A stretch of 64,000 nucleotides of DNA from NCBI GenBank assembly GCA_022508885.1, contig JAFLUG010000002.1:6816-70815 (forward strand), given 5' to 3'. This DNA comes from Oscillospiraceae bacterium (GTDB lineage Bacteria; Bacillota; Clostridia; Oscillospirales; Ruminococcaceae). The notes below the pieces were generated by a model. It ran no database searches. It was not told the DNA's origin and worked only from the letters and a program-made list of their open reading frames with translations. Of the stretch, positions 1-30,833 are shown one piece after another (position 1 is the stretch's first letter; each line of letters starts with the position of its first letter). The translations under genes and the position numbers were made by a program.

Positions 1-970
1 TTTCCATTGCCGCAAGTCGGTCGCATTCTTTGATCCTCAGCCTCGCGGCGTTTGTAATACGGCTTGTTCCATGACAGAAACAAGCTAAAACCGACATTAT
101 CGGAACTAAATCGGGAATATCCGAGCAGTCGATCTCGAACGCTTTTCCATTCTTGGCGTTTTTGCAGATGTCAACGATCTTTTTATCTCCCTGCAGGGAG
201 TTTTCGTTAAGACCGTTTATCTCAATTTCTGAACCGAGCGCATTTGCTACATAGAAGAACGCCGCCTGAGAGTAATCCCCTTCAACATCTCCCGAAAACG
301 ATTTGAATTTTTCCGTTCCATTTACGGAATATCCGGTTTCATTTTCGGATATATCACAACCGAAATCGTGCAGAACTCCAAGAGTGATATCAACATACGG
401 TTTGGATTGCAGGGGAGAGGTGAGAAAAATTTCGCTGTCTCCCGACAACAGCGGGAGTGCAAACAAAAGCCCTGTGATGAACTGTGAGGAAATTCCGCCG
501 TCAATCTCAAACTTTCCGCCGCTTAATTTTCCGCTGAGCCTACATGGCAAGTTAGTATTGCTCAAAAAATAGAACGAAACATTATGTTTTGGAAATTCGC
601 TGATAAACGGTGTTATCGGTCTTTCCGGAAGCTTTCCTCTGCCTTGAAACTCAGCGTTTACGCCGAGCGCCGCGGCCACGGGTATCAGAAACCGAAGCGT
701 TGAACCCGATTCACAACAGTCTAAAACCGCTTTATCGGGAATATTTTTTATTCCTTCAATTACAGCCTTATTGCCGTCGTATTCGATCTCCGCGCCGAGA
801 GCTTTCATACAGCCGAGAGTAGCTTTTATATCAACAGAAGGGGAGAGGTTTGAAATTTCTGACCTGCCTTTTGAAAGAGCGGCCGCGATAATCATTCTGT
901 GAGCGACGCTTTTTGAAGGCGGAACATTAACGCTTCCGCGAAGCTTGTTTGGAGTAATTTTTATATCCAT
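1..970 (-). CDS. aroA: 3-phosphoshikimate 1-carboxyvinyltransferase (EPSP synthase), first ~323 codons; 3' end lies beyond the left edge
   Basis: Own translation of the minus strand from ATG at 970-968: MDIKITPNKLRGSVNVPPSKSVAHRMIIAAALS...CCESGSTLRFLIPVAAAL...GGISSQFITGLLFALPLL...DIPDLVPIMSVLACF...RLRIKECDRL. The frame is open to base 1. It is missing from the ORF track only because no stop codon lies inside the window. It starts 2 nt after the aroB stop (operon). Confidence 0.9.
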   Translation of the reverse strand, partial: MDIKITPNKLRGSVNVPPSKSVAHRMIIAAALSKGRSEISNLSPSVDIKATLGCMKALGAEIEYDGNKAVIEGIKNIPDKAVLDCCESGSTLRFLIPVAAALGVNAEFQGRGKLPERPITPFISEFPKHNVSFYFLSNTNLPCRLSGKLSGGKFEIDGGISSQFITGLLFALPLLSGDSEIFLTSPLQSKPYVDITLGVLHDFGCDISENETGYSVNGTEKFKSFSGDVEGDYSQAAFFYVANALGSEIEINGLNENSLQGDKKIVDICKNAKNGKAFEIDCSDIPDLVPIMSVLACFCHGTSRITNAARLRIKECDRLAAME

Positions 971-972
971 AT

Positions 973-2025
973 TCAACTTTCCAAGAATTCTTTGTATTCT
1001 TCAACTGACATTTTAACAACTTCACTTTTGCCTATATCCGAGCAAATTATGATATTCATACCGTTTGAAAGATGTTTTTTATCGTGAAGCGAAAGCTCGT
1101 AAAGTTTATCGAGCGGTGCGCTGTCTTTGATAGGCAGACCGCATTTTACCAAAAGCTCGTCCAATTTGTCGCCAACGCCTTTTTTGCACATTCCACGGCG
1201 CTCGGCAATATGTGTGAAAACGCTCATGCCCACCGCAACAGCGTTTCCGTGGGTAATGCCCGTGTAATTGTAGTATTTTTCAAGCGCGTGAGCAAGCGTA
1301 TGTCCGAAATTCAAGAGCATTCTTTCGCCCTTTTCCCGCTCGTCATTTTCAACGACCTGACCCTTGATAGTCACATTTCTTCTCATAATATCAACAAGAT
1401 TCTCGTTGATATCTTCATTTGACAGAATTTCAAACAGCTCGGGAGATTTGATCATTCCGTGCTTTATGACTTCCGCCATTCCGTCCGAGAAAAACTCTGG
1501 AGTAAGTGTCTTAAGAGTATCGGTGTCACAAATAACAAGCTTGGGCTGATGAAAAGCCCCAACAAGATTCTTTCCCGAATTAATGTTTACGGCAGTCTTA
1601 CCTCCTACAGAGCTGTCCGCCTGCGAAACAACTGTTGTCGGAATTTGAACAAAATTAATGCCGCGCATGTATGTCGCCGCGGCATATCCCGCCGTATCTC
1701 CTACAACACCGCCGCCGAGCGCAACAATAAAATCAGAGCGTGTATATCCGTTTTCCGCCATAAAATCATAGATCCCGAGCAGGGTGGAGTGATTTTTAGA
1801 AGCCTCGCCGTGGGGAAACACAAACTTTTTCGCCTCAATTCCTGCTGCATCCAGCGACTTCATCATGCGTTCGCCATAATACTTGTCAACATTGTCGTCT
1901 GTAACAACACAAGCCTTTGTTTTTGGCTTCATTACATGAGATATAAGTTCTCCCGATTTGTCAAGTAGACCCCTGTCAAGCAGAATTTCATAACTTGTGC
2001 TTGCGTTTACCAAAACTTTTTCCAT
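973..2025 (-). CDS. aroB: 3-dehydroquinate synthase
   Basis: 350-aa ORF with the GGGVVGDTAGYAAATYMRGINFVQIPTT nucleotide-binding motif and downstream HxxxH metal ligands typical of AroB. Adjacent to aroA. Confidence 0.93.
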   Translation of the reverse strand: MEKVLVNASTSYEILLDRGLLDKSGELISHVMKPKTKACVVTDDNVDKYYGERMMKSLDAAGIEAKKFVFPHGEASKNHSTLLGIYDFMAENGYTRSDFIVALGGGVVGDTAGYAAATYMRGINFVQIPTTVVSQADSSVGGKTAVNINSGKNLVGAFHQPKLVICDTDTLKTLTPEFFSDGMAEVIKHGMIKSPELFEILSNEDINENLVDIMRRNVTIKGQVVENDEREKGERMLLNFGHTLAHALEKYYNYTGITHGNAVAVGMSVFTHIAERRGMCKKGVGDKLDELLVKCGLPIKDSAPLDKLYELSLHDKKHLSNGMNIIICSDIGKSEVVKMSVEEYKEFLES

Positions 2026-2054
2026 AATAATCCTCCACCGAAATATCTCATATT

Positions 2055-2083
2055 ATTATACAATACTATAATTGATTTGTCAA
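2055..2083 (-). promoter_or_regulatory. sigma-70-type promoter for aroB-aroA
   Basis: On the minus strand: TTGACA (2083-2078), 17-nt spacer, TATAAT (2060-2055), about 30 nt upstream of the aroB ATG. Confidence 0.6.
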
Positions 2084-2135
2084 GAGTTAAGACTGCACGG
2101 CGGACTTTTTACAAAATTTATTTATTCGTAAATTT

Positions 2136-2248
2136 ACCCCCGATAAGGCGAGCCGCCTTTGGCAATACGTTCCACATGTGAAACGCTGTCAAAGGCTGAT
2201 GCTCGAAGATGCGACACTTCTATATCGCACTTTCCTTAACTCGGGGGT
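2136..2248. other. ~113-nt highly structured intergenic element (multi-stem; unknown class)
   Basis: The closing helix ACCCCCGAtAAGG (2136-2148) pairs with CCTTAaCTCGGGGGT (2234-2248). Nested inside are helices CGAGC/GCTCG, GCCTTTG/CAAAGGC and a GTGCGA/TCGCA(T) hairpin. The element lies between the SCP2-gene stop and the aroB promoter. Confidence 0.4.
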
Positions 2249-2282
2249 AACAATTTTTTAAGAGATGATCAGTAAGAAAAAA

Positions 2283-2786
2283 TCAGAAAATTGAAGCGAT
2301 CATAACTGCAGCAGGGATATTTCCGTTTGCATTAAGAGCACCGGTAGAAACAGCATCCTTTAGCGTAAGTTTTCCATCAAGAAGTTTCATCATATTTTCA
2401 TAGTTGATATATGCCTCAAAGCTGCAGTTGTCATAACGATAGGGCTGGACATCAACTTTACCATTCTTGACCTCAACATAAAGGTGGCAACTTGTATCGT
2501 TTTCCAAGCCCCATACCTCGATATCGACCGCTGCATCCGATTTAACATTCTTAGCGTTTTTAATGAGCTTTCTGAGTTTAGCACACATTTCATCTGCTGT
2601 GGCAAACTTGGGCTTTCTAACTACTTTTTTCTTAGCAGCCACAGATTTAGCAGGCGTCTTTGCCGAAGTCTTAGCAGTTTTAGCAGGTGTCGTTTTCTTG
2701 GCCGATGTCGATTTTACCGCAGCTTTTGCTGTTGCAGTTTTGGTTGTCGCGGTTTTCTTTGCCGGTTTTTTCTCAGATTTGGTCAT
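2283..2786 (-). CDS. SCP2 (sterol-carrier-like) domain protein with a Lys/Ala/Thr-rich N-terminal tail
   Basis: The C-terminal ...LYVEVKNGKVDVQPY...KLLDGKLTLKDAVSTGALNANGNIPAAVMIASIF fits the SCP2 fold signature. The N-terminus is a KKPAKKTATTKTATAKAAVKSTSAKKTTPAKTAK repeat-like tail. I prefer the ATG at 2786 (RBS GAAAGGA upstream) over the ORF-track start at 2804. Confidence 0.65.
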   Translation of the reverse strand: MTKSEKKPAKKTATTKTATAKAAVKSTSAKKTTPAKTAKTSAKTPAKSVAAKKKVVRKPKFATADEMCAKLRKLIKNAKNVKSDAAVDIEVWGLENDTSCHLYVEVKNGKVDVQPYRYDNCSFEAYINYENMMKLLDGKLTLKDAVSTGALNANGNIPAAVMIASIF

Positions 2787-2923
2787 ATCAAAATATCCTT
2801 TCAACTATTCCGCTGGATACGGAAATTTTTACTACAATAATATAATAACATATTATTTCAAAAAATTCAACTGATTTTTTATATTGTATAAATATTTTTA
2901 CAAATTTTATTAACACTGATATA

Positions 2924-2952
2924 TTGACTTAACAGCATATGAATGATATAAT
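2924..2952 (+). promoter_or_regulatory. sigma-70-type promoter reading into the left prophage junction (putative original promoter of the recombinase gene)
   Basis: TTGACT (2924-2929), 17-nt spacer, TATAAT (2947-2952). It has the same layout as the promoter at 10996-11024 and is followed by the same CAGTAGGG leader. Confidence 0.55.
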
Positions 2953-2957
2953 AACCA

Positions 2958-3006
2958 CAGTAGGGAAAAATATTGCTTATTGCGTAAAATAGAAATGTTA
3001 TGGTAG
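2958..3006 (+). repeat. Left copy of the junction direct repeat (attL-like): intact left arm and centre of the recombinase core site, with a degenerate right arm
   Basis: 2958-2995 (cagtagggaaaaatattgcttATTGCGTAAAATAGAAA) matches 11030-11067 at 33 of 38 positions. The last 18 bp, ATTGCGTAAAATAGAAAT (2979-2996), are identical to 11051-11068. The right arm here is TGTTATGGTAG(CAAT) instead of TTTTACGCAAT. Confidence 0.75.
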
Positions 3007-3014
3007 CAATTTTA

Positions 3015-3046
3015 GTGCGGTTTTCACAAACCGCACTTCTTTTTTT
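3015..3046 (+). terminator. Rho-independent terminator just inside the left prophage end
   Basis: GTGCGGTTT (3015-3023), loop TCAC, AAACCGCAC (3028-3036), followed by TTCTTTTTTT. Confidence 0.75.
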
Positions 3047-3145
3047 GTGTCAACTTTCCGGCTCTGTTCGTCATGACTTTTTTCATCATTTTTGCGCGAC
3101 TCAGCTCGTCATAATTATATAAACGGTATTCGCGCCTTCGATAGC

Positions 3146-3395
3146 CCGCGCCCGCAGGCGCGGAACTCTCTTAGTGTTATCTTCTAAAAAACTCATGAGC
3201 CGAAATAAGTTTTTCCTCTATTTAGGACTTTTAACGCGCCCGCCTCGATAATAAATTGAACAAATCAAGGTTATATTTGCGGTATGACAACTTTCGGTTT
3301 CTTGAAAGAAGAACAGCGCAGCCTCGCGCGGGGTGGGCTTCAGCCCTCCGCGCGAGGCGTTCGGGGAAACCCCGTCTTGGTAATACGGGGTTTCC
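3146..3395. other. Cluster of GC-rich perfect hairpins (candidate phage intergenic region: ssDNA origin or packaging signal)
   Basis: Three hairpins: CCGCGCC-cgca-GGCGCGG (3146-3163); GCCTCGCGCGG...CCGCGCGAGGC (3321-3358, with inner GGGCT/AGCCC); GGAAACCCCGT-cttggtaat-ACGGGGTTTCC (3365-3395). The three overlapping ORF-track ORFs here lack RBSs and recognisable motifs. Confidence 0.5.
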
Positions 3396-3472
3396 ATTAC
3401 AAGCACCCCTGACCGGGGCGGAAATCTCGGTCTGGATGAAGAATAAAAAATCCAAAATTTACCATTTTCCCG

Positions 3473-3506
3473 CGGTGAAAAAATATCCCCCGACCGAGGT
3501 CGGGGG
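3473..3506 (-). terminator. Rho-independent terminator of the leftward lysogeny operon
   Basis: Plus-strand hairpin CCCCCGACC-ga-GGTCGGGGG (3487-3506). On the minus strand it is followed by ATATTTTTTT. It lies directly after the stop of the 50-aa gene. Confidence 0.7.
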
Positions 3507-3510
3507 GGGT

Positions 3511-3663
3511 TTATTCAGCTTTTTCAATGTATTTTTCTTTCATTTCATTTAAATCTGAATTTACTCTTTCAATAAAATCTTCTTTACTTTCTGCATTATC
3601 TGAATTAAAGTTTAACATTTCTATAATTTCTTCAAATATCTCTTCAATTATTTCTTTTTTCAT
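3511..3663 (-). CDS. Small acidic helical protein (50 aa), translationally coupled to the XRE repressor
   Basis: Own translation: MKKEIIEEIFEEIIEMLNFNSDNAESKEDFIERVNSDLNEMKEKYIEKAE. Its ATG (3663-3661) overlaps the repressor TGA (ATGA). Below the ORF-track size cutoff. Confidence 0.5.
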   Translation of the reverse strand: MKKEIIEEIFEEIIEMLNFNSDNAESKEDFIERVNSDLNEMKEKYIEKAE

Positions 3664-3890
3664 TTTCTCATCTCCTTTTTTTTATATGGTTTTTCTTCAT
3701 CTGTAATATTTGCTATATAATCTATCGAAACATTGTATATTTTTGCGAATTGTACTGCTACATCTAATGGTACTATTCTTTTCCCGTGTTCGTATCTTAT
3801 ATAACTATTCAATGATATAAAGGCTTTCTTTGCACATTCGTTTTGTGAATAGCCTTCTCTTTCTCTTAATTCGCTTAATCTTGTGTACAT
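3660..3890 (-). CDS. XRE-family helix-turn-helix repressor (cI-like), 76 aa
   Basis: LSELREREGYSQNECAKKAFISLNSYIRYEHGKR is a typical HTH_3 motif. The gene is divergent from the rightward phage operon, with three operators in between. Confidence 0.85.
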   Translation of the reverse strand: MYTRLSELREREGYSQNECAKKAFISLNSYIRYEHGKRIVPLDVAVQFAKIYNVSIDYIANITDEEKPYKKKEMRK

Positions 3891-3930
3891 TCATTATACC
3901 ACCTTTCTTTCTTTTATTATAAAAAAAAAT

Positions 3931-3991
3931 CTCCAAATGGAGTTGACAATTCACTCCAAATGGAGTATAATGATTATAACTCCAAATGGAG
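3931..3991 (+). promoter_or_regulatory. Rightward phage promoter interleaved with three identical operators
   Basis: CTCCAAATGGAG (arms CTCCA/TGGAG) occurs at 3931-3942, 3954-3965 and 3980-3991. TTGACA (3943-3948) directly follows O1. TATAAT (3966-3971) directly follows O2, with an exact 17-nt spacer. Confidence 0.75.
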
Positions 3992-4032
3992 TTAAATTTT
4001 ATTTCTCATTAAAAGAGAAGAAAGGTGTTTTT

Positions 4033-4392
4033 ATGAGTTTATTAGAAAGTATTTTTGAAGTCAAAAAAAGACAAGTTTTTTCAAGCGATCAAGCAAGATG
4101 TGAAGAATTCCTTCAATATTTTGATGATCCGGATAGGCTCATTGATTATTTTAAATGTAGCATTTTTTTCCAACCTGAGCTTGATTTTTATTATCAGTTA
4201 GCCTCATTTATTACTATGCTTGATTATGCCGAAGACCTTTTTTGTTATCTAATTTATTATGGATTTCCTTTTGAGATGGCAAAAAATATTCTTCTTCCTT
4301 TTTATTACAATGATGAGGCTTTAGTTAAATCGTGGTTTTATAATTGTATGTCTCGCGCTTCTGATGATATAAGAAAAAAACATGGTATTTAA
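4033..4392 (+). CDS. Hypothetical phage protein, 119 aa (first gene of the rightward operon)
   Basis: The ATG at 4033 is preceded by AGAAAGG. The ORF-track start at 3883 would overlap the repressor start and the operators. No motif recognised. Confidence 0.5.
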   Translation: MSLLESIFEVKKRQVFSSDQARCEEFLQYFDDPDRLIDYFKCSIFFQPELDFYYQLASFITMLDYAEDLFCYLIYYGFPFEMAKNILLPFYYNDEALVKSWFYNCMSRASDDIRKKHGI

Positions 4393-4430
4393 ATTTATCG
4401 CTCACCAAAAGAGCAGAAAGGTTTATAAAA

Positions 4431-4574
4431 ATGGAAAATCAAGAAACTAATGAAAAGTCCCTTGAACATTTAGAAATGGAAGCTTTTGAGGATTGGTTCT
4501 GGAAAACCTATGAATCTACAAAAAATCTTTCTTCTGAACAATTTCTTGATTATTATGATTATGAATTTCCTTAA
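4431..4574 (+). CDS. Hypothetical small acidic protein, 47 aa
   Basis: Own translation: MENQETNEKSLEHLEMEAFEDWFWKTYESTKNLSSEQFLDYYDYEFP. RBS-like AGAAAGG upstream. Confidence 0.4.
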   Translation: MENQETNEKSLEHLEMEAFEDWFWKTYESTKNLSSEQFLDYYDYEFP

Positions 4575-4577
4575 ATT

Positions 4578-4609
4578 CCGTTGGTCGTCCGGATCACGAC
4601 GACCACCAA
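4578..4609 (+). repeat. Conserved hairpin motif, copy 1
   Basis: CCGTT-GGTCGTC-cggatcac-GACGACC-ACCAA. See copy 2 at 5491-5520, which has a compensatory base-pair change. Confidence 0.6.
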
Positions 4610-4671
4610 GAGCAATAACGCTCTATAAATTTTATAGCTCTATAAAAGAGCGGAAAGAAGAGGTAAAAATT

Positions 4672-4932
4672 ATGTTGGTACAGTTGATTGGTGTTCAGGA
4701 TTTAAATTTTGACACGGACGACAACAAGCACATCGAGGGTCTTAAGCTGCACATCGCTTATGAGAATCCGCACGTTACCGGGCTGAAGGTCGACAGTAAG
4801 TTTATCAATGCAGACCTTTGCAAGAAGCTTAATCTGACGGCTTCAACCCTTGCCGGATATATCGACGCTGTTGTAGATATTGCAACGGATATCAACGGTA
4901 AGATCATCGGCGTTACACCTTGTAAGGAGTGA
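4672..4932 (+). CDS. Hypothetical 86-aa protein; position and size compatible with an ssDNA-binding (gene V-like) protein
   Basis: ATG at 4672 is preceded by AAGAGG. MLVQLIGVQDLNFDTDDNKHIEGLKLHIAYENPHVTGLKVDSKF... looks beta-rich and has no TM segment. The functional guess rests only on size and synteny. Confidence 0.45.
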   Translation: MLVQLIGVQDLNFDTDDNKHIEGLKLHIAYENPHVTGLKVDSKFINADLCKKLNLTASTLAGYIDAVVDIATDINGKIIGVTPCKE

Positions 4933-4938
4933 TTTTAC

Positions 4939-5034
4939 ATGCTCGAGTTTCTTCAGTGGGCTTGCCTCGGAAGCGGAATAATCTTTGCAGTTCTGCTTGT
5001 GATTTATTTCGTAACACGCAAGCGGGGGGATTAA
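4939..5034 (+). CDS. 31-aa single-TM protein with a basic C-terminus (coat or minor-coat candidate)
   Basis: Own translation: MLEFLQWACLGSGIIFAVLLVIYFVTRKRGD. RBS AAGGAG lies 8 nt upstream. Confidence 0.5.
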   Translation: MLEFLQWACLGSGIIFAVLLVIYFVTRKRGD

Positions 5035-5037
5035 TGT

Positions 5038-5283
5038 ATGTTGGAAATTCTTTTGAGTGAAGTTACAGAAACCTTGCCGGTACAGGCTATTGAGCTTGAA
5101 GAACAGATAAATCATTATTGGGCGCAGCTTGGCTCTTCTGTATTTCAGCCCGGTTTGATTATTGACCTTCTTTCGGATATGACAAAAAATCCTCTCTGTC
5201 TTTCTGTAACTGGCGCTTTGCTTGTAGTTTTTGGTTTTAAAATCTTCTCTCAAATGATATTCGCTCATCTTGAAAGGAGGTGA
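5038..5283 (+). CDS. Hypothetical 81-aa protein with a C-terminal TM segment
   Basis: ORF-track ORF. The hydrophobic LCLSVTGALLVVFGFKIF lies near the C-terminus. The gene is tightly packed between its neighbours. Confidence 0.5.
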   Translation: MLEILLSEVTETLPVQAIELEEQINHYWAQLGSSVFQPGLIIDLLSDMTKNPLCLSVTGALLVVFGFKIFSQMIFAHLERR

Positions 5284-5287
5284 TATT

Positions 5288-5479
5288 ATGGAAGGTTCAA
5301 GTACAACCGTTTTGCAGACCGTTGCAGGTAATTCAAAGGATTTTCTTGGCTTGGTAACAGATATCGGGAGTACATGTATGCAGAATGAGGTTTGCATGGC
5401 ATTTCTGACTGTTACTTTCCTTTCTTTGGCTGTACGTCTGTTTAAGAAGGTTGTCCGTGCTCTCGGTCGCGGAAGATAA
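5288..5479 (+). CDS. 63-aa major-coat-protein candidate (pVIII-like architecture)
   Basis: ATG at 5288 is preceded by AAAGGAGG. It has a polar N-terminal part, then the hydrophobic core MAFLTVTFLSLAV, then the basic tail RLFKKVVRALGRGR. Hairpins and a terminator follow, as after coat genes of known filamentous phages. Confidence 0.5.
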   Translation: MEGSSTTVLQTVAGNSKDFLGLVTDIGSTCMQNEVCMAFLTVTFLSLAVRLFKKVVRALGRGR

Positions 5480-5490
5480 CCTTCGTCAAC

Positions 5491-5520
5491 CCGTTGGTCG
5501 TTCGGGTCACAACGACCTCC
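5491..5520 (+). repeat. Conserved hairpin motif, copy 2
   Basis: CGTT-GGTCGTT-cgggtcac-AACGACC-TCCA. Relative to copy 1 the innermost stem pair changes from C:G to T:A (covariation). The flanks CCGTT...CCAA are conserved. Confidence 0.6.
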
Positions 5521-5560
5521 AAAAAAATCCGCCTTTCGGCGGGAATAGTTTATTTTTCAT
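5521..5560. terminator. Short bidirectional terminator between convergent phage genes
   Basis: An A-run, then CCGCC-tttc-GGCGG (5529-5542), then T-rich sequence. It sits between the coat-candidate stop and the stop of the minus-strand 47-aa gene. Confidence 0.45.
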
Positions 5561-5693
5561 TATCGTTTAATTTCTTAAGTATTTCGTCAAGCTTTTTTTC
5601 TATTGGTTTCATCAAAACGTGATACATTGTTATTATTATAATTACTAATCTTATGAAATCTAATGTTATTAATAGCCATATTTGATTTTCCAT
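5550..5693 (-). CDS. 47-aa single-TM protein encoded antisense to the structural operon
   Basis: Own codon-by-codon translation: MENQIWLLITLDFIRLVIIIITMYHVLMKPIEKKLDEILKKLNDNEK. RBS AAGGAG lies 8 nt upstream on the minus strand. Confidence 0.5.
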   Translation of the reverse strand: MENQIWLLITLDFIRLVIIIITMYHVLMKPIEKKLDEILKKLNDNEK

Positions 5694-5757
5694 TTTTAAC
5701 CACTCCTTTCAATTTGATTATATCAAATCGAGATTATTTTGTCAATGAGGTGATTTT

Positions 5758-7530
5758 GTGAAAAAGGTTTCTTCGGTTTTAATGGCTGTTGTAATATTTC
5801 TTGTTTGCGTTCTCTCTTGCTCGCTTACTGTCTTTGCCATTGGCGAGTTTTTGATTGATTATTCTGTATCTTATGTTTTAGATTACTTTTCGGATAATCT
5901 TTTAAATTCTCTTAATTCCGGTCAGGCAAAAATTGAAGCTGCTCGAAGCTATTATTTTTATAAGCTTGTAAATAACGAATATAACTATAATGGTTCTGTT
6001 TTTTCTTCCGATGGTACTCGTTTTACTGATGATTATTTAAATCATTGTTGGGACTATTATTTTGAAGTTGTTTCTGCAAATCGTAACGAATATGACAGTT
6101 CTGGAGATGTATTTTTGACAGCTGCAGGTTTTGACGGTTCTTCTTGGAAGTTGTCTATGATTGCTTTTGAAGATTTCGGTAATGAAAGCGGTAACACTAA
6201 TAATGAAAATACTTGGCGTTCTGACTATAAGAATTATTATCAAACCTATCTCGCCCGTTACATATTAGACCAAGGTGGCACAGCTTCCGACCCTAACCCC
6301 GGAAAAAGTGGTCTGGATATCGCTCCCGGATATGTAAGTTCCGACGATCTTAAGGAGCATATCAATAAGGAAAATACACTTTACAGTCCCAAAGGCAAAG
6401 ACCTTTTCTTAAATTCCTATCGTACCGATAAGAACTATCATAGAGAAAAAATTCCTTCCGGTTATACGGATAGCCTTTACTATGTCACATTGTTTCAAAA
6501 TCCTCAGACTATGGAGTGTTTGAGGGATTTGTATTGTCTGCCGTTCTATAAAGCTGAGGACGGCACAATGTACTATTGTGACTATATGTTCCATTATTAT
6601 TGGGTTGCTAATGATGATCCAAATTCAGATATTGCCTTTCGTGCTGACGTTTATCAGTTCAATCAGACTTTAGGCTATATTTATCATGACGAGTATTCCG
6701 GAATTATTTATGAGGGTTTAAGTTATTCTATGCCTTATCAGATAAGGACAGCCGCTTTTACTTATTCCGGCTCGGGTCATTATAATGATTCACCTTATTT
6801 TTCTTTCGTTTCAGATTTAACTGAATATGACGACTGTAAAGCTACTATATATCAAACTGTTCCATATCTTGCCTTGAAATTTTCGTATTTCTTGCCCGAC
6901 TATTCAGCTTCCTATCTTTTTTATAGATACAGTACTAATTCCTCGTATATTACAATTTACAAGAATTTTTTTAATTCAAGTCTTTCCGGTTATCCTTACA
7001 GCAAAAACCCTAACACTAACAATGATTATGGTTTCATCTGCTCCGAAAGCATGATTTCAACCGTTTACAATATAGACAGCTCTCGCATTCCTTCCGGTCA
7101 GATCATTCAGATCACCGGAGATAGTAACGTATATAACTATTATATGACTGATCCCGAAACAGGGCATAGCAGTACTGTAAACGAGTTTGTAGAAAACAAT
7201 TATACATATATCACCAATAACAACGGGGGAGAGGGAAGCGGATCCGGCGGAGCTGGCGGAGATATAAACGTCAGCGGTAAAGTTGATGTTGAAGGAGATA
7301 TCCACGTTGGTGTTGACGTTAATATAAATCAGGGCGGAACCGGAGTAAATCCCGATGATTTCATACAAGGCGATTTAGATCTTGGCGGTTATTATGACGA
7401 TGCTGTAGATATGGCTTCCGGCGTTAATAATTTTATGCAGCTTTTCTTCTCGTTTCTTCCTGCTGAAATTTTATCGCTTCTTGGTATTCTTATAGCTGTC
7501 GCAATAGTCTGTCGGCTTCTTGGGCGGTGA
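5758..7530 (+). CDS. pIII-like adsorption / minor coat protein, 590 aa
   Basis: GTG start after GAGGTG. Signal peptide MKKVSSVLMAVVIFLVCVLSCSLTVFA. Long Tyr/Asn/Ser-rich ectodomain. Gly-rich linker NNNGGEGSGSGGAGGD. C-terminal membrane anchor LSLLGILIAVAIVCRLLGR. Confidence 0.65.
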   Translation: MKKVSSVLMAVVIFLVCVLSCSLTVFAIGEFLIDYSVSYVLDYFSDNLLNSLNSGQAKIEAARSYYFYKLVNNEYNYNGSVFSSDGTRFTDDYLNHCWDYYFEVVSANRNEYDSSGDVFLTAAGFDGSSWKLSMIAFEDFGNESGNTNNENTWRSDYKNYYQTYLARYILDQGGTASDPNPGKSGLDIAPGYVSSDDLKEHINKENTLYSPKGKDLFLNSYRTDKNYHREKIPSGYTDSLYYVTLFQNPQTMECLRDLYCLPFYKAEDGTMYYCDYMFHYYWVANDDPNSDIAFRADVYQFNQTLGYIYHDEYSGIIYEGLSYSMPYQIRTAAFTYSGSGHYNDSPYFSFVSDLTEYDDCKATIYQTVPYLALKFSYFLPDYSASYLFYRYSTNSSYITIYKNFFNSSLSGYPYSKNPNTNNDYGFICSESMISTVYNIDSSRIPSGQIIQITGDSNVYNYYMTDPETGHSSTVNEFVENNYTYITNNNGGEGSGSGGAGGDINVSGKVDVEGDIHVGVDVNINQGGTGVNPDDFIQGDLDLGGYYDDAVDMASGVNNFMQLFFSFLPAEILSLLGILIAVAIVCRLLGR

Positions 7531-7534
7531 GTAT

Positions 7535-7714
7535 ATGACGTTTGATTTAAGCGGCTTCGTTGAGCTTGGCACATGGCTTTTTTCTATCGGAAAATCTATA
7601 TTTGAAAGCTTCGTTTTTGATTTCGGCGATTTCCAAATTAATGGCTTTGCTTTGATGATTGGAATAGCTGTATTTTGCATTATATGTTATCTTTTAGGGA
7701 GAATTACTGAATAA
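7535..7714 (+). CDS. 59-aa membrane protein (pVI-like position)
   Basis: The ATG at 7535 lies 4 nt after the pIII-like stop. Sequence MTFDLSGFVELGTWLFSIGKS...GFALMIGIAVFCIICYLLGRITE. Its stop overlaps the next ATG (TAATG). Confidence 0.55.
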   Translation: MTFDLSGFVELGTWLFSIGKSIFESFVFDFGDFQINGFALMIGIAVFCIICYLLGRITE

Positions 7715-8391
7715 TGGGAATAGCAGAAATAATTGAAATAATTGAAATTGTCAATTTTGCTTTGGAGCTTTCCGAAGCTATTGAAAACGGTGTAAATTAC
7801 ATAATTGAGAAGTTTGTAGATTCTTCCGGTAATGTATGTACACGGATTGTATATCGTTATGACAGTACGGGCGACGGTGTAGAGGACAGCGAGGAGATTA
7901 TTTATACTCTTCAGCAGACTATTCCTAAACTTTATGATGGTTATTGCCTTGTAAATAAAGGAAATGAAATTGGCTTGGGTCAGCCTTCTTTAAAGCTTGT
8001 AGACGCTTCCGAGCTTCTTCCTATACTCGGTGATACTTATTCCGTTATATCTGATGGAGAAGGTATTAAAATAGATTTTGATGATGACGGCTTCATTGAT
8101 GATATTTTTTTTCCTGCTCCATACGATTTTTCCGGTGACGGTATAAACGATTGGTATCAGATAGTCGATGATGACGATAACGGACTTCCGGATTGCGCTC
8201 CCGGTACTCCTTTTTATTCTGTCGGAAGTGACGAGTATAACTACATAATCGAAACGCAGTCAGATACCGAAGTTCCGGCTCTGGATAAGAGCTTTGCAAA
8301 CTATACCGTTACCGAGGCTCTTTTGTTCCTTATATTTGTAGCCGGAGCGATCGGCGTAGGTGCTAAATTTTTCAAGCGGAGGAATATTTAA
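7714..8391 (+). CDS. Acidic 225-aa protein with DxDG-type loops and a C-terminal TM anchor
   Basis: DDDGFIDD, SGDGINDW and DDDNGLPD resemble calcium-binding loops. The C-terminal ALLFLIFVAGAIGVGAKFFKRRNI is an anchor. Confidence 0.5.
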   Translation: MGIAEIIEIIEIVNFALELSEAIENGVNYIIEKFVDSSGNVCTRIVYRYDSTGDGVEDSEEIIYTLQQTIPKLYDGYCLVNKGNEIGLGQPSLKLVDASELLPILGDTYSVISDGEGIKIDFDDDGFIDDIFFPAPYDFSGDGINDWYQIVDDDDNGLPDCAPGTPFYSVGSDEYNYIIETQSDTEVPALDKSFANYTVTEALLFLIFVAGAIGVGAKFFKRRNI

Positions 8392-8392
8392 T

Positions 8393-8539
8393 ATGAGCTT
8401 AGATAATATCTGGTTTGGCAGTTTCGAGGACGTTGTTTCTTGGCTCTGTTCCGCTGTTCCTTACGCTTTCGTATCTGTCTTTGTTCTTTCATGCGTATTC
8501 TCTGTTTTTGAAACTGTTTCGAATTGGGGTAGAAAATGA
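8393..8539 (+). CDS. 48-aa single-TM protein
   Basis: Own translation: MSLDNIWFGSFEDVVSWLCSAVPYAFVSVFVLSCVFSVFETVSNWGRK. RBS GGAGG upstream. Confidence 0.45.
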   Translation: MSLDNIWFGSFEDVVSWLCSAVPYAFVSVFVLSCVFSVFETVSNWGRK

Positions 8540-8658
8540 TGTTTGAGCTTTCTAATCTTCGGGAATTTTTCTATTGGCTTACCGGCTTGGGTCCTGTTCT
8601 TTTCTTCTTTTTCATCGCTAAGAATTTCATTATTTTCTTCAGAAAGGACGGAAAGTAA
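8536..8658 (+). CDS. 40-aa single-TM protein
   Basis: Own translation: MMFELSNLREFFYWLTGLGPVLFFFFIAKNFIIFFRKDGK. ATGA overlap with the previous gene. Its stop abuts the next ATG (TAAATG). Confidence 0.45.
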   Translation: MMFELSNLREFFYWLTGLGPVLFFFFIAKNFIIFFRKDGK

Positions 8659-9462
8659 ATGTTTTCTGCTATAATCAGCGCTATAAAATGCGCTCCGAGG
8701 TTCTGGGCTTTTTTCTTCAAGGACTTTTATTATTACATAAAATACAAGAAGTGGAGCGATTTCAATTATTGGGGGCTTCATTTGTTCCTCGGTAAGTTTG
8801 GTTCCGGTAAGACTATTTCGGCTGTCCGGTACGCATATAACATCTGTAAGAACCATAAGGGCGTTACCGTTCTTACTAACCTTACGCTTACCAATTTTCC
8901 TAAGGATACCACTATTATTAAGTTGGTTAATTCCAATCAGATTAAGGAACTGCCTAATAATTCTATTGTTCTTATTGATGAAATAGGTACCATTTTCAAT
9001 TCTCGCGACTTTGCCTCTTCAAAAAAGTCCGTTCCGAAGCCTGTTTATCAGATAATTTTACAGTGCCGTCACAGGCGTATTATCATGATCGGCACTGTCC
9101 AGCGCTGGAATCTGTTGGATAAGCAGCTTAGAGATATCGCCGACACCGTCACTGAGTGCCGTAGTTTTTTCGGCGATCCTTTTTCCCGGTATACTACTTG
9201 TGCCAATTATGACGCTTACGAGTATGATAAGTGGTTCAATAATCCTCTTATTCCTCGCACTCTTCGTCGTTATTACGGATATATTCAGACCGACAAGCTG
9301 CGCAGTAAGTATGATACTATTGAAATGGTCGAGGGTATGCTCGATGCTGAATATATCCCCGATGAGCAGATCATACAGAACAGGGAAGGAACTTCCTTTT
9401 CTCCTGCTGAGTTTGAGAGCAAGTCCGCAAAAAAATCTATAAGAAAGGCGCTTAAGAGATGA
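8659..9462 (+). CDS. Zot/pI-like P-loop NTPase (filamentous-phage morphogenesis ATPase)
   Basis: Walker A GKFGSGKT and Walker B IVLIDEIG, with a hydrophobic N-terminal segment. It lies in the canonical position after the structural genes. Confidence 0.6.
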   Translation: MFSAIISAIKCAPRFWAFFFKDFYYYIKYKKWSDFNYWGLHLFLGKFGSGKTISAVRYAYNICKNHKGVTVLTNLTLTNFPKDTTIIKLVNSNQIKELPNNSIVLIDEIGTIFNSRDFASSKKSVPKPVYQIILQCRHRRIIMIGTVQRWNLLDKQLRDIADTVTECRSFFGDPFSRYTTCANYDAYEYDKWFNNPLIPRTLRRYYGYIQTDKLRSKYDTIEMVEGMLDAEYIPDEQIIQNREGTSFSPAEFESKSAKKSIRKALKR

Positions 9463-10715
9463 TTACCTGTAAGCCCAGCGATTATTTGACTATATCCCTT
9501 ATTCCGGATAAGGATAATAATATAGATTTGGCAGATTTTATTACTCTTTTGCTCGATACTATGCATCTTTCTGATATGCTCCCTCTCATGCGCTTTATGT
9601 GCTCAACCTCTAAATATGAGCAGATTTTGCGGTATGAGGATATCCAGATAAAAATTCCTTATGCCGAAAACTATAAGAAGCAGGGTATTTGCCTTGAATT
9701 TTCGGGAAATGGTGTAAATTATTATATCGAGTGGCTTAAAAGTAAATATAATACGAGCTTGCGCTCTGCGTGCAGACGTTTTTACGCGCTTGTGACAAAA
9801 GGCTTCAAGCCTAATTGTTCCCGCTTTGACGTGGCTTTTGATGAAAAAATACTTAATTCCGGAGAAGAGAAGTATCTCGATCTCGATGTTATAGAAAGTA
9901 CGCTTCGCTCTCGCTGTTTTGTTTCTTGTTTTCGGAAGGGCGATCCTGATCATAGCTCCGGAGAATTTTCTTCCGTGCTTATTGATTTATCCAAAGCTGA
10001 TGAAAAGCTCCATTGTGATTTCATCAGCTCCATGAACCTTTCAAACGGTGTTGTCGGTAAAACAATTCAGCTCGGCAAGCGTAATAGTTCTTCAGTTGTA
10101 CGCTTTTACGATAAAAGAGCTGAGCAAGAGGTAAAAGGGGTAGAGCTGCCTAATAATCTTTCTTCTTGGGTTCGTTGTGAGTGCGAGTTTAAGAAACTTA
10201 ACGCTAATTCTGTTATGATGAAATTTGTTGAACTTTCGGAAAAGGATTTTGTTACATACTGCTCCGGTGTGCTTCTTAACCTTATTCGTTTCATCAATCT
10301 TGACCGCTCACGCCGCTCAAATTGTACTGTCTGCGATTGGTGGCTTGGTTTCCTCAAACACGCTAAGCGCGCGAAATTGGTGCATTTCAAGCCTCAGCGT
10401 AATAAATATATCCGTGCTGTAGCTTACCAAAAGAAAAGCGTTTCAGCTTGTCTTACCGCAATTTCTATGTGTGATCCTCGCGAAATACGCAGTATTTACG
10501 AATCCGGTCTTGATATGGTTGCCGACAGTAAATCCGCTCAGGCTATAATCGCGGACTATAACGCTTTGAAGAATTTAAGCCCTTACGAGTTTGATAAAGA
10601 ATGTCACCGTTCATTGGATCCGTTGACCGGGGTTCAGTTTTTGCGCCTGTTTACGGCTAAATCTGATGACGAGTTCAATCAATTCCTTTCCGAGCTTAAA
10701 AAGGAGATAGCTTGA
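9459..10715 (+). CDS. Rolling-circle replication initiator (Rep_trans / replication initiation factor family)
   Basis: RFDVAFDE, VRFYDKRAEQE and WVRCECEFK match my recollection of the Rep_trans (pT181 RepC / phage RCR initiator) conserved blocks. ATGA overlap with the ATPase gene. Confidence 0.7.
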   Translation: MITCKPSDYLTISLIPDKDNNIDLADFITLLLDTMHLSDMLPLMRFMCSTSKYEQILRYEDIQIKIPYAENYKKQGICLEFSGNGVNYYIEWLKSKYNTSLRSACRRFYALVTKGFKPNCSRFDVAFDEKILNSGEEKYLDLDVIESTLRSRCFVSCFRKGDPDHSSGEFSSVLIDLSKADEKLHCDFISSMNLSNGVVGKTIQLGKRNSSSVVRFYDKRAEQEVKGVELPNNLSSWVRCECEFKKLNANSVMMKFVELSEKDFVTYCSGVLLNLIRFINLDRSRRSNCTVCDWWLGFLKHAKRAKLVHFKPQRNKYIRAVAYQKKSVSACLTAISMCDPREIRSIYESGLDMVADSKSAQAIIADYNALKNLSPYEFDKECHRSLDPLTGVQFLRLFTAKSDDEFNQFLSELKKEIA

Positions 10716-10987
10716 TAGTGTGTGATTGGTGGAGCTGCGCACATTTTGAGGACTGTAAAGCTCGTTGCATTTTCTCCGGTTCTAAATATCCGGCTTGCTA
10801 TATGTGCGTACATTTTGATATGTGTGATGTTTGCACTGAGTATGTCAATTGTGCCGATCTGGTTACTCGTTATCTTCCGAATATGTTCCGTAGACTTGTA
10901 AGAGATATCCGGCTTGGGGAAGATACCGAACGGACAAATCAGTTTATACGCCGTAATACTCTCGGCGGTCAGAAGCGTGATGTCTGA
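10712..10987 (+). CDS. Cys-rich 91-aa protein (11 Cys in the first 47 residues)
   Basis: MIVCDWWSCAHFEDCKARCIFSGSKYPACYMCVHFDMCDVCTEYVNC... TTG start 5 nt after AAGGAG, overlapping the Rep stop. Confidence 0.45.
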   Translation: MIVCDWWSCAHFEDCKARCIFSGSKYPACYMCVHFDMCDVCTEYVNCADLVTRYLPNMFRRLVRDIRLGEDTERTNQFIRRNTLGGQKRDV

Positions 10988-10995
10988 CCGCTTAC

Positions 10996-11024
10996 TTGAC
11001 ATATTCTGGTCATAATGGTATAAT
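10996..11024 (+). promoter_or_regulatory. Consensus sigma-70 promoter (phage side of the right junction) now driving the recombinase gene
   Basis: TTGACA (10996-11001), 17-nt spacer, TATAAT (11019-11024). Confidence 0.6.
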
Positions 11025-11029
11025 GTCCT

Positions 11030-11078
11030 CAGTAGGGCAAAATATGAGCTATTGCGTAAAATAGAAATTTTACGCAAT
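11030..11078 (+). repeat. Right copy of the junction repeat, containing a perfect 28-bp palindromic tyrosine-recombinase core site
   Basis: ATTGCGTAAAA-TAGAAA-TTTTACGCAAT (11051-11078) reads as 11-6-11, or equally as 12-bp perfect arms around AGAA. It lies between the -10 box and the RBS (AGGGGGA) of the recombinase gene. Confidence 0.75.
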
Positions 11079-11091
11079 ATAGGGGGATAGT

Positions 11092-12138
11092 ATGACAGAA
11101 AATAAAAATTACAATAACGCGCCTCAGTCTATCAGGGATTTTATTTATTACGAGCAAATTGTAAAGGGTCGTTCAGAGCTTACTGTAAAAAACTATTTTA
11201 ACGATTTAAAAAGTTTTTTCAGATTTTATAAAATCAAAAACGGTCTTGCGAACGAAAAGGATTTCTCAACAATTGATATTTCGGATATTTCTGATGATGA
11301 TATTAAATCCGTTGATTTACAGTATGCTCAGGAATTTCTGATATTTATGCAAACTAAAATGGCTAATCAGCAAAAAGCCCGCTATCGTAAGGCTGTGACA
11401 CTTCGTCAGTTTTACAAATTTCTTACTAACAACAAAAACATGTTCGAAGTCAGTCCTATGGCAAATTTGGAGCTTCCAAGCCCAAAACCGGCACTTCCGA
11501 AATATCTTACACTTGAGCAGTCTCTTGAATTGCTGGTTAATGTAGATACTCCTGATACAAAGCGCGATTATTGTATAATCGTATTCTTTCTCAACTGCGG
11601 AATGCGTTTATCGGAGCTTGTGGGAATAAATATGAGCGATATACGGAAAACACGCGATAAGGACGGAAACGAAATTTACTCGATGAAAGTCCTCGGAAAA
11701 GGCAGTAAAGAGCGAATTATTTATCTCAACGACGCTTGTGTTAATGCTTACTATGATTATATCTCGCCTGAGATAACCGATCCCGATATTCGAAATGAAA
11801 AAGGTCTGCGCGATATGTCCGCACAGACAGACGCTTTGTTTTTGAGCCGCAGACGTACAAGAATATCAAACCGCCGTGTTCAGCAAATCGTTGAGGATTG
11901 TCTGAAGAAAAGCGGGCTTGACAATATGGGGCTTTCGGTACATAAGCTGCGTCATACAGCGGCTACGCTGATGTATCAGAACGGCGTTGACGTTCGTGTG
12001 CTTAAAGATGTTCTCGGACACGAAAATCTCAATACAACACAAATCTACACCCATGTTTCAAATGCTCAGATGGAAAACGCTATGAAGAAAAATCCGCTTG
12101 CGTCGGTAAATAATAAATCAAAAAATGATAAAGGGTGA
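11092..12138 (+). CDS. Xer/phage-integrase-family tyrosine recombinase, 348 aa
   Basis: N-terminal SAM-like core-binding domain (TVKNYFNDLKSFFRFY). Catalytic signature GMRLSEL ... KGSKER ... HKLRHTAAT ... LGHENLNTTQIYTHV (R-K-HxxR-H-Y). Confidence 0.88.
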   Translation: MTENKNYNNAPQSIRDFIYYEQIVKGRSELTVKNYFNDLKSFFRFYKIKNGLANEKDFSTIDISDISDDDIKSVDLQYAQEFLIFMQTKMANQQKARYRKAVTLRQFYKFLTNNKNMFEVSPMANLELPSPKPALPKYLTLEQSLELLVNVDTPDTKRDYCIIVFFLNCGMRLSELVGINMSDIRKTRDKDGNEIYSMKVLGKGSKERIIYLNDACVNAYYDYISPEITDPDIRNEKGLRDMSAQTDALFLSRRRTRISNRRVQQIVEDCLKKSGLDNMGLSVHKLRHTAATLMYQNGVDVRVLKDVLGHENLNTTQIYTHVSNAQMENAMKKNPLASVNNKSKNDKG

Positions 12139-12143
12139 CATGA

Positions 12144-12914
12144 TTAGTCTCCTGTATTAAGCTTTTTCTTGAATATTAAAATTGTTAAAATGAGTATGCA
12201 TCCTATTAAAACAACATTATATTTTACAGGCGCTATAAAACAAATGTTAAAAATCATATGTGATAAAGAAACTATTAATATACTTTTATATCTATAAAAA
12301 AGTATTCCTAAAATAAATGAAATTAAAATTGTCCATACAAAATATATAAGTATCTCCCTAAATCCTAAGGAATTTCTTATTGCCCACATAGGAATATGCC
12401 AAATTGGCCAAACAATTCCAACATATACCAAAGAAGTTTTATTCCCTTTTTCATTTGCTATTTTATTCAGCAAAAAACCTCTCCATGCGATTTCCTCAAC
12501 CAATGCTGTCACAAATAAATAGATACAGTTGATTAAGACTGCTAAAACATTTGGATAAGTGTTTGTGAATAAATCTTTATCGTCTGTAATCAAGCAATAT
12601 ATAATTGAAAAAGATAATCCAACACTTCCCAAGATTACACAATAAAATATTGCTTGACATTTTACTTTTTCTGCAAATAAACCAAAAAACCATTTTTTAA
12701 AGATTCTATCTTTTAAGGAAAATAATATGGATACCACAAGTGGTATGGTAACAAATAAGTATTTAGCATTAAGTATCACTTGGGAGATATGAATATCGTT
12801 TTTTTCCAAAAACATAGGGAGATAGCATAAATAAGAAAGTATTAGAACCAAAGATGTCCACAACAATACTTTCATATCCGGTTTTTTCGTACTCATTTCA
12901 TTTTCCTCGTTCAT
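12144..12914 (-). CDS. CPBP (CAAX/Abi) family intramembrane metalloprotease
   Basis: Multi-TM protein with the EEIAWRGFL motif and a distal SHMIFN motif. It starts 8 nt downstream of the znuB stop, so it is the last gene of that operon. Start codon uncertain. Confidence 0.75.
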   Translation of the reverse strand: MNEENEMSTKKPDMKVLLWTSLVLILSYLCYLPMFLEKNDIHISQVILNAKYLFVTIPLVVSILFSLKDRIFKKWFFGLFAEKVKCQAIFYCVILGSVGLSFSIIYCLITDDKDLFTNTYPNVLAVLINCIYLFVTALVEEIAWRGFLLNKIANEKGNKTSLVYVGIVWPIWHIPMWAIRNSLGFREILIYFVWTILISFILGILFYRYKSILIVSLSHMIFNICFIAPVKYNVVLIGCILILTILIFKKKLNTGD

Positions 12915-12922
12915 AGTATCAG

Positions 12923-29357: not shown

Positions 29358-29423
29358 TATTGTATTACCTTATTATTATAGCAGTCATAATCTTTTTTGT
29401 CAAGTATTGGAAACAAGCATAAT

Positions 29424-29549
29424 CAATGAATATTATTCATTGCTATTCAAAATTTCTTAAAATTTATTTGAAAAAATAATGAGATTATTGAATAATATTA
29501 TGTATTATGAATATTAGCACTTGACAAAACATCAGGATGATTGTAAAAT
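29424..29549 (+). promoter_or_regulatory. ARG-box-like operators and the argG promoter
   Basis: A perfect 19-bp palindrome CAATGAATATTATTCATTG (29424-29442). Tandem TGAATAATATTATG / TGAATATTAGCA boxes (29487-29522) abut TTGACA (29521-29526), then a 17-nt spacer and TAAAAT (29544-29549). Confidence 0.55.
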
Positions 29550-29592
29550 AATATTCGTAAAATAATTTTCTAACATAAAGGAGATTTTAATT

Positions 29593-30816: not shown

Positions 30817-30833
30817 TTACATTTAATTCAAAC

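Follow-up and report, generated by a model that had tools for sequence, protein, structure and literature searches.

Organization of the locus

The window analysed here, a stretch of 64,000 nucleotides, carries near its left end an insert of 8.07 kb (~2997–11050) that is bounded by two copies, one of them imperfect, of a short palindromic site. Host aroB and a gene for an SCP2-domain protein form the left flank, while a CPBP protease gene and a zinc ABC transporter operon form the right flank; the closest relatives are Oscillospiraceae MAGs. The G+C content is 0.36–0.40 in the insert versus about 0.44–0.46 in the flanks. The features of the region are listed below by coordinates, strand and assignment.

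2924..2952, +, host xer promoter, TTGACT-17-TATAAT with a TG-extended −10 box, 11/12 (promoter scan); now separated from xer
2953..2978, +, host leader, carrying the CAGTAGGGAAAAATAT motif (alignments)
2979..3010, +, attL: intact left arm ATTGCGTAAAA (2979–2989), centre TAGAAA (2990–2995) and degenerate right arm TGTTATGGTAGCAAT (2996–3010)
3014..3046, +, intrinsic terminator on the phage side of attP: stem 3014–3037 (10 pairs), then TCTTTTTTT; faces the stranded host promoter
3047..3659, no strand, non-coding phage region with GC-rich hairpins, resembling an inovirus intergenic/origin region (ssDNA fold)
3660..3890, −, phage HTH (Xre-type) repressor (Pfam HTH_3, 1.9e-10; PHROG repressor families)
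5758..8391, +, two large phage ORFs of 590 aa and 225 aa (no Pfam or PHROG match)
8659..9462, +, Zot/pI-type morphogenesis ATPase, an inovirus hallmark (Pfam Zot, 3.2e-08)
9459..10715, +, rolling-circle replication initiator (Pfam Rep_trans, 7.5e-30, and Rol_Rep_N)
10712..10987, +, Cys-rich 91-aa ORF, always the final gene ahead of the phage promoter and attP
10996..11050, +, phage-borne promoter TTGACA-17-TATAAT, 12/12, TG-extended, with a leader resembling that of the host (promoter scan); faces xer
11051..11078, +, attR: regenerated perfect 28-bp site, same sequence as the empty-site attB
11092..12138, +, host Xer-family tyrosine recombinase, 348 aa (Pfam Phage_integrase, 6e-36; SAM-like N domain)

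The right copy of the site (11051–11078) is a perfect 11-6-11 arrangement, ATTGCGTAAAA-TAGAAA-TTTTACGCAAT, and ends 13 bp 5′ of the ATG of the 348-aa ORF. With up to three mismatches allowed, the 11-6-11 pattern occurs twice in the 64-kb window, against 0.01 occurrences expected. The 18-bp identity that the preliminary description had claimed for 2979–2996 proved exact, with 11051–11068 as the matching stretch, and an extra flanking T (2978 and 11050) brings it to 19 identical bp (2978–2996 and 11050–11068). After that T, the shared stretch takes in all of the left arm ATTGCGTAAAA and of the centre TAGAAA, plus the first base (T) of the right arm. The similarity of ~50 bp described upstream was recovered by a repeat search as 2942–3000 versus 11014–11072, with 83% identity over 59 nt, and this pair is the longest two-copy family within the first 16 kb. 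The right arm of the left copy had been called degenerate, and MAFFT did align TGTTATGGTAGCAAT to TTTTACG----CAAT with a 4-nt insertion.

Alignments of the leader revealed a motif, c-AG-y-AGGGg-AAAATAT, that is common to the host loci and the phage copy; the best-conserved block, CAGTAGGGnAAAATAT, sits between the −10 box and the core. A leader peptide 3′ of the AGGG motif was considered and rejected, as the start codon and the frame vary among loci. No known RNA family or tRNA target was found in positions 1–16000 of the window.

An inovirus-like prophage between the two copies

By its gene set, the insert is a filamentous (inovirus-like) prophage. The combination by which an inovirus is recognized, a pI/Zot ATPase and a rolling-circle Rep in a genome of 5–12 kb, is present here within 8.07 kb. 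The Zot protein also matched the PHROG families Zot-like (2.3e-11) and M13 protein I (4.3e-09). Its relatives, found on many IMG/VR contigs of 5–9 kb, numbered 125 confirmed among the IMG/VR viral contigs, and the best 80 of the 125 were kept as loci for comparison. A search of viral contigs with the Rep protein gave no confirmed relative.

Within the non-coding region at the left end, the GC-rich segment 3290–3520 folds as ssDNA with −56.6 kcal/mol (z −5.2), and three palindromic 14-mers at 3931–3993 overlap a perfect divergent promoter at 3943–3971. The 590-aa ORF has an N-terminal signal/TM segment and Gly-rich linkers, the 225-aa ORF has a C-terminal TM segment, and weak homologues of the two are found in the related prophages L006 and L014; position and composition only make them candidate adsorption or minor coat proteins. 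Small ORFs of 47–63 aa in the insert are candidates for the major coat protein. For the 91-aa ORF, Pfam and PHROG gave no match up to E = 5; homologues of it adjoin the site in L014, L065, L054 and L021, and in a scar in L030.

No recombinase is encoded among the 14 called genes of 2997–11050, only 4 of which would be long enough for one (the 590-aa ORF, the 225-aa ORF, Zot and Rep_trans), and tblastn with the Xer protein found no Xer paralogue in the window.

The host recombinase and the adjacent palindromic site

The recombinase encoded at 11092–12138 was compared with the named Xer families. The best NCBIfam matches were XerC, XerD and XerA, and all scores were below the cut-off (XerC 191.5/335, XerD 185.8/~330, XerA 176.9/220, XerS 114/267). 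Because every NCBIfam score falls below the curated cut-off, the protein is placed outside the named equivalogs and, on these profile scores, is a separate Xer-like lineage that is not part of the XerS, XerC, XerD or XerA equivalog. Among solved structures, XerA (5hxy) and XerD (1a0p) come nearest, with XerH (5jjv) giving only 9.9e-13, and alignment to 5hxy and 1a0p located the catalytic R-K-H-R-H-Y set as R (mRlsEL), GKGsKeR, HklRHt, GH and IYTH.

The xer gene is syntenic and single-copy in 44 genomes and is a core gene of the Oscillospiraceae clade. The palindromic site lies 15–90 bp upstream of it in about 22 of the 29 close relatives, and 0.4–1 kb from it or absent in five or six. More distant relatives have other palindromes in an equal promoter–palindrome–RBS layout, such that the site varies together with the xer gene. 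From this co-variation of site and protein across clades, and from their adjacency, we infer that the adjacent Xer protein acts on the 28-bp site. In its 11-bp arms and 6-bp centre the site is also built like an Xer target, and integrase-less elements occupy it repeatedly.

Empty and occupied sites

The preliminary description had predicted an ancestral attB composed of the promoter of the 2924 type, a perfect palindrome and the recombinase gene. Precisely this arrangement was found in a contig of the same species that lacks the insert (L051). The flanks of L051 are 97.4–98.6% identical to the window, its SCP2 protein is identical, and its SCP2–xer spacer of 233 bp reads TTGACTTAACAGCATATGAATGATATAATAACCACAG..., that is, the promoter copy of 2924, then the perfect palindrome and xer. 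The same attB layout is present in four sister species (L004, L010, L012 and L015) with aroB–SCP2–xer–ABC synteny, in which the empty sites read TTGACT-17-TATAAT, about 26 bp of leader, palindrome, RBS and xer. At the empty site of L051, the sequence upstream of xer is thus the 2924-type copy and not that at 10996–11050, and the proposed ancestry stands. Comparison of the empty and occupied sites of the same species places the insert within the 28-bp site.

A second sample carries the prophage with 100% identity (L048) and has an equal attL (L052), and a third sample lacks it; from this distribution it is taken to be a recent, polymorphic insertion. The 7,828-bp contig L048 was also considered as a circular form and rejected, as it equals 3253–11080 of the window and has no terminal overlap.

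Comparison of the SCP2–xer spacer in the lysogen and the non-lysogen showed that six of the seven differences are confined to the 18 bp immediately left of the core, and that the last five bases before the core in the non-lysogen (GAGCT) equal the phage copy. These six clustered substitutions are unexplained by a clean exchange within the centre. One possible interpretation is that the cluster arose when the host and phage leaders, which are homologous, exchanged sequence.

Promoters and terminator at the junctions

The second promoter of the form TTGAC(T/A)-17-TATAAT proposed beforehand was borne out by the promoter scan, with a copy at each junction. The hexamers and spacer of the phage-borne promoter occupy 10996–11024, and the −10 boxes of both copies end exactly 26 bp before the site. 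When the 55-bp promoter segment alone was compared with the empty sites of the sister species, the two copies gave 39 and 38 matches, and identity to these sites was therefore discarded as a way of telling the host promoter from the phage promoter. Because the 55-bp sequence alone does not discriminate, the assignment of the copies is made from their flanking context: the left copy at 2924 is contiguous with the host SCP2–xer spacer, while the right copy adjoins a phage gene, beginning 9 bp past the stop codon of the 91-aa ORF. The phage promoter gave 42/58 matches to the host promoter of L016.

The strong terminator that had been placed immediately after the left half-site was located at 3014–3046, with a fold of −14.9 kcal/mol (z = −4.4) that none of 200 shuffles equalled in stability. 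Apart from that hairpin, the 93-nt transcript region 2958–3050 shows only a modest fold (z −2.3). At the other end of the insert, the scan found no + strand terminator between 9975 and xer (11092), and for this reason transcripts reading through from the phage operon could drive xer even without the phage promoter at 10996–11024.

Junctions in related phages and the predicted attP

In a circular phage, attP would consist of the promoter, the left arm, the centre, the degenerate arm and the terminator, in that order, and its predicted sequence would be ...ATATGAGCT ATTGCGTAAAATAGAAAT GTTATGGTAGCAAT.... The preliminary description had predicted an attP of promoter, asymmetric site and terminator; this was not found for the window phage itself, but a junction of that kind is present in the related phage L065. 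Searches for the exact junction pattern of a free attP gave 0 matches in viral contigs and 0 in metagenome contigs, and the 18-mer of left arm and centre recovered 87 stretches in metagenomes, nearly all attributable to chance, with two perfect sites and no attP.

The locus L066, among the best 80 of the 125 Zot relatives, is an integrated copy that reads phage end, ATTGCGTAAAAGAGAAATTTTACGCAAT and xer. L065 is 99.4% identical to L066 through the last base of the centre and then diverges, continuing with ATTGATAACCC, a T-run hairpin (−28.3 kcal/mol, z −5.2), a promoter and a RelB/YoeB-like pair. As read from this order of phage-left, half-site, degenerate arm and terminator, L065 is an attP-type junction. 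It could be, instead of a free circle, the junction of two adjacent elements. Blast detected no similarity of the L065 tail to the window phage or to any other locus.

An independent junction was identified in another species, L029, where the host promoter is followed by ATTGCGTATAA-TTCTTG-TATTATGATAGTTAT, a 72-bp AT-rich remnant and then a perfect site. The right arm in this case (TATTATGATAGTTAT) has the same 4-nt-longer shape as that of the window. Because the L029 arm has the same shape, the degenerate arm is considered a feature of the incoming attP and not random decay. The 1.9-kb mini-element L021 likewise has an attL followed by a terminator hairpin (−15.1 kcal/mol), and a terminator downstream of the degenerate arm is thus common to L065, L021 and the window.

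TG-extended, near-consensus promoters pointing outward just before the site are present in at least four divergent phage lineages; besides that of the window phage, they read TTGACA-17-TATACT in L005/L014, TTGACA-17-TACACT in L030, TTGAAA-17-TATAAT in L054/L065/L066 and TTGTAA-17-TATAAT in L055. Around these promoters the flanking sequence and the distance to the site (26 versus 38 bp) have diverged. L030 has lost the phage body and attL, and its scar, which lies between a host transporter gene and the site, in front of xer, comprises only the phage promoter and leader and the last ~35 codons of the 91-aa ORF. Sequence comparison thus lends support to the promoter swap suggested beforehand, through the outward promoters of four phage lineages and the promoter-only scar of L030.

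Proposed mechanism

The interpretation that we regard as likely is that 2924–3046 is the attL of an 8.07-kb, inovirus-like, recombinase-free prophage inserted in the palindrome of the xer leader, and that the phage promoter restores expression of xer. The insertion point is in the 5′ leader of xer, between the xer promoter and the ribosome-binding site, and because the site lies in this leader, every insertion would leave xer without the promoter that normally precedes it. With the promoter copy that the phage brings along, xer still has a promoter after insertion. The host Xer protein would catalyse integration of the phage, as in IMEX elements, and the phage-borne promoter, possibly together with read-through from the phage operon, would then restore xer expression. 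In the lysogen, xer transcription would start near 11031 and give a 61-nt leader that includes the palindrome hairpin, while the stranded host promoter would produce only an orphan transcript of ~87 nt, ended by the phage terminator, which may in this way shield the phage origin region from host transcription and the repressor gene from antisense transcription. The poor right arm of attL would be expected to lower excision by attL × attR recombination, with attR remaining fully usable. A host xer locus is the probable source from which the phage captured its promoter and leader, and selection would then have maintained them.

An alternative that we consider unlikely is that the duplicated promoter has no selected function. 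It would then be host DNA left over from an aberrant excision, with read-through driving xer and the hairpin serving as the operon terminator in the circle. The lack of a + strand terminator between the end of the Rep and 91-aa genes and xer fits this explanation, as does the order in a circular phage, where the 3014–3046 terminator would come after the end of the operon; the likeness of the phage promoter to host promoters of related species (42/58 to L016) is also consistent with capture. However, a TG-extended, near-consensus promoter is similarly placed in at least four lineages despite divergence in sequence and spacing (26 versus 38 bp), and the promoter is the one phage part kept in the L030 scar; moreover, capture and later selection can both hold. 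Distinctly less probable is that the promoter, attP and terminator constitute a phage gene for a small RNA of ~87 nt that acts in the free phage, for example in the control of integration or replication, with transcription of xer as a side effect. The promoter and terminator do bracket only the site in the predicted circle, and likewise in L065, and the leader motif AGGGrA is conserved. There is, though, no Rfam match and only a modest fold beyond the hairpin (z −2.3), and the homology of the phage leader to the host leader argues for mimicry of the host arrangement.

The exact 26-bp geometry relative to the core, shared by the host and the window phage, and the position of the top-conserved block CAGTAGGGnAAAATAT outside the hexamers, between the −10 box and the core, would suit a different function for the ~50 bp left of the core, namely as accessory recombination sequences that, like cer or psi of XerCD, serve synapsis and are not a promoter. 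Across the phage lineages, however, it is the hexamers and their 17-bp spacing that are conserved while other sequence and the distance to the core change, and the site is present in host clades with no nearby promoter (L020, L021 and L031), making this reading very improbable. There is next to no chance, in our estimate, that the recombinase is a phage integrase at the end of the prophage, or that the degenerate arm is a decaying second dif copy left by a duplication. The gene does adjoin the prophage, and its Pfam domain is named 'Phage integrase', but it remains at the empty site of the same species and is the syntenic single-copy gene of 44 genomes; the same arm shape recurs in another species and beside phage DNA in L065, and attL is identical in two samples.

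Relation to known Xer systems

Integration of the phage at attL and attR by the host recombinase, as favoured here, resembles the behaviour of the IMEX elements (CTXphi, VGJphi and TLCphi of Vibrio, the gonococcal genetic island and LME-1 of Legionella), which likewise have no integrase and insert at a host Xer target. The window element has no recombinase of its own and is inserted exactly at an Xer-linked site with which it shares the left arm and the centre. In both cases attP partly mimics the site, and one junction is perfect and the other imperfect. Filamentous phages also make up most of the classical IMEX (PMC4246890, PMC5357621), and work on LME-1 and XerL of Legionella showed that excision drops when one att arm carries mismatches (PMC9765430). 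The differences are that the host here belongs to a Gram-positive gut clostridial lineage (Oscillospiraceae), that apparently a single recombinase with palindromic arms is used and not XerC plus XerD, and that the site is inside the leader of the recombinase gene, so that integration disconnects the promoter and the phage supplies a replacement. A folded ssDNA attP like that of CTXphi is not evident here and finds no support: the ssDNA fold of the attL region 2979–3010 is not significant (z −0.4) and no second inverted half-site was found inside the element.

A single Xer gene with its site immediately upstream is also known from XerS/difSL of streptococci and lactococci and from XerH/difH of Helicobacter and Campylobacter. 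The protein described here is neither of these (XerS 114 versus a cut-off of 267; XerH 5jjv 9.9e-13), and its site, of 28 bp, has a 6-bp centre between arms of perfect symmetry, compared with 31 bp and an 11-bp centre in difSL. Le Bourgeois et al. (2007) proposed that difSL is situated between xerS and its promoter, that XerS may regulate its own synthesis and that such a layout could prevent IMEX insertion, the rationale being that insertions would inactivate xerS (PMC1914069). At the xer loci described here insertions are frequent and repeated, and the inserted phages carry a promoter, which is the opposite of a protective effect.

The Gram-positive inoviruses of Clostridium (CAK1), Propionibacterium (B5) and Enterocloster share with the window phage a genome of ~8 kb that encodes pI/Zot, a repressor and a rolling-circle Rep, and direct repeats on either side (PMC10061712, PMC6813254). 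In contrast to the window phage, neither integration at an Xer-type site nor a promoter-bearing attP is found in these two sources, and the Enterocloster study reported only flanking direct repeats (PMC10061712). The part of the literature covered here yielded no description of this Xer lineage, of IMEX in Clostridia or of a promoter-bearing attP.

A broader reading, which we hold as a tentative possibility, is that the locus represents an undescribed single-recombinase Xer module of Oscillospiraceae and relatives, with the site in the leader of the gene itself, that a family of Gram-positive filamentous phages overcomes the promoter–dif–xer layout put forward in 2007 as a safeguard, through an attP that mimics the xer promoter and leader, that cycles of integration rewrite the control region of xer, and that the 91-aa protein could be an Xer-activating or directionality factor. 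The L030 scar and the substitution cluster would, on this broader reading, be traces of repeated integration, decay and exchange, and the 91-aa protein could be analogous to XafT of TLCphi.

To our knowledge, nearly all Xer-exploiting elements described so far come from Proteobacteria with XerC/XerD, where they carry cholera toxin and other cargo. The locus extends this lifestyle to abundant gut Clostridia with what is apparently a one-protein Xer system, for which it provides a defined 28-bp site open to direct testing, and it offers a natural counter-example to the 2007 idea that dif between xer and its promoter acts as protection. If the promoter swap is real, lysogeny alters expression of the host recombinase, and decayed prophages may leave phage promoters in permanent control of a host housekeeping gene. 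The short attB/attP pair could also serve as an integration tool for gut anaerobes that are hard to engineer.

With regard to a possible identity of the site as the chromosomal dif, which would be unique and at the replication terminus, the window shows no switch in GC skew or gene orientation there, and the skews of the 9-kb flanks were mixed in 22 related loci. Positions 53769–53796, in the hisH–hisA spacer, hold a second 11-6-11 site whose centre is different; it is conserved in that place in L026 and L028.

Remnants and variants of the element at the xer site

Comparison locus L030 (8580-10000) contains the scar of a decayed element, flanked by a host transporter gene on one side and by the 28-bp site on the other. 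The Cys-rich 91-aa phage ORF is reduced there to a C-terminal remnant, and the only other parts of the element left are the leader and a TTGACA-17-TACACT promoter. At this locus, a promoter of phage origin is now fixed ahead of xer, the recombinase gene. Miniature inserts, flanked by one degenerate and one perfect site, were observed in two further loci, L029 (9851-9978) and L021 (8050-9981). The L029 insert comprises 100 bp with no genes, and the 1.9-kb insert of L021 carries a structured region and the Cys-rich ORF, with neither Zot nor Rep, which makes it satellite-like.

The Cys-rich ORF, of ~90 aa and without a known family, was located at the following positions:

window 10712-10987, phage ORF
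L014 5469-5735, comparison locus
L065 2695-2979, related phage
L021 9623-9925, 1.9-kb mini-element
L030 9727-9894, scar

It is invariably the final gene ahead of the phage promoter and attP, and it is retained both in the mini-element and as a scar. One speculation is that its product is a candidate accessory factor in Xer-mediated integration.

The lysogen (window 2961-2978) was compared with the non-lysogen (L051/L053), revealing 6 substitutions within the 18 bp to the left of the core and 1 substitution in the rest of that spacer (~215 bp). The GAGCT of the non-lysogen is identical to the phage-side copy at 11046-11050 and, taken with the substitution cluster, this match hints at an exchange between homologous host and phage leaders. 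Contigs end exactly at the 28-bp site in many assemblies (L002, L005, L018, L024, L027 and L053), and such breaks are a typical mark of within-sample insertion polymorphism. In sample SRR13619850 the phage has a contig to itself, and so does each of the two flanks, SCP2 on one side and xer on the other.

Sites in relatives of Xer

Xer relatives at 42-49% identity retain the promoter-palindrome-RBS-xer layout with palindromes of other sequence, TGTGAAAC-N-GTTTCACA (the first kind) and ATTTCGCTAAA-N6-TTTAGCGAAAT. Loci with other palindromes are:

L033-L041 and L045, ~20 bp before xer
L042, L044 and L046
L056, ~4800

The last of these is an inovirus contig adjoining a palindrome of the first kind, and the Xer-site phage lifestyle may therefore extend across the family. 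In five close relatives with 78-82% Xer identity (L006, L007, L008, L022 and L032), the palindrome either could not be located or lies 0.4-1 kb ahead of xer, with different sequence filling the gap between the two; these may represent insertions at the xer side of the site.

Other palindromes and neighboring features

Two further palindromic features were noted in the window:

53769-53796, second 11-6-11 site, ATTGCGTAAAA-GTTTTC-TTTTGCGCAGT, hisH-hisA spacer
3931-3993, three palindromic 14-mers, CTCCAAATGGAGTT, spaced 23-26 bp

The his-region site has one perfect arm and one with 2 mismatches, and its center (GTTTTC) is unlike that of the xer-proximal site. It is kept at the orthologous spacer in two further species (L026 4667-4694 and L028 836-863). 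Possible roles are those of an operator, of an RNA hairpin or of another target for Xer.

The 14-mers overlap a perfect promoter (3943-3971) adjoining a divergent HTH repressor gene, and are probably the operators of that repressor. Immediately past the attP-type junction of the related phage L065, a RelB/DinJ-like antitoxin and YoeB-like toxin pair is present (3364-3885).

Elsewhere in the window, a 13-kb block (~29000-42000) displays positive GC skew in otherwise negative-skew surroundings; it may have been inverted or have a foreign origin.
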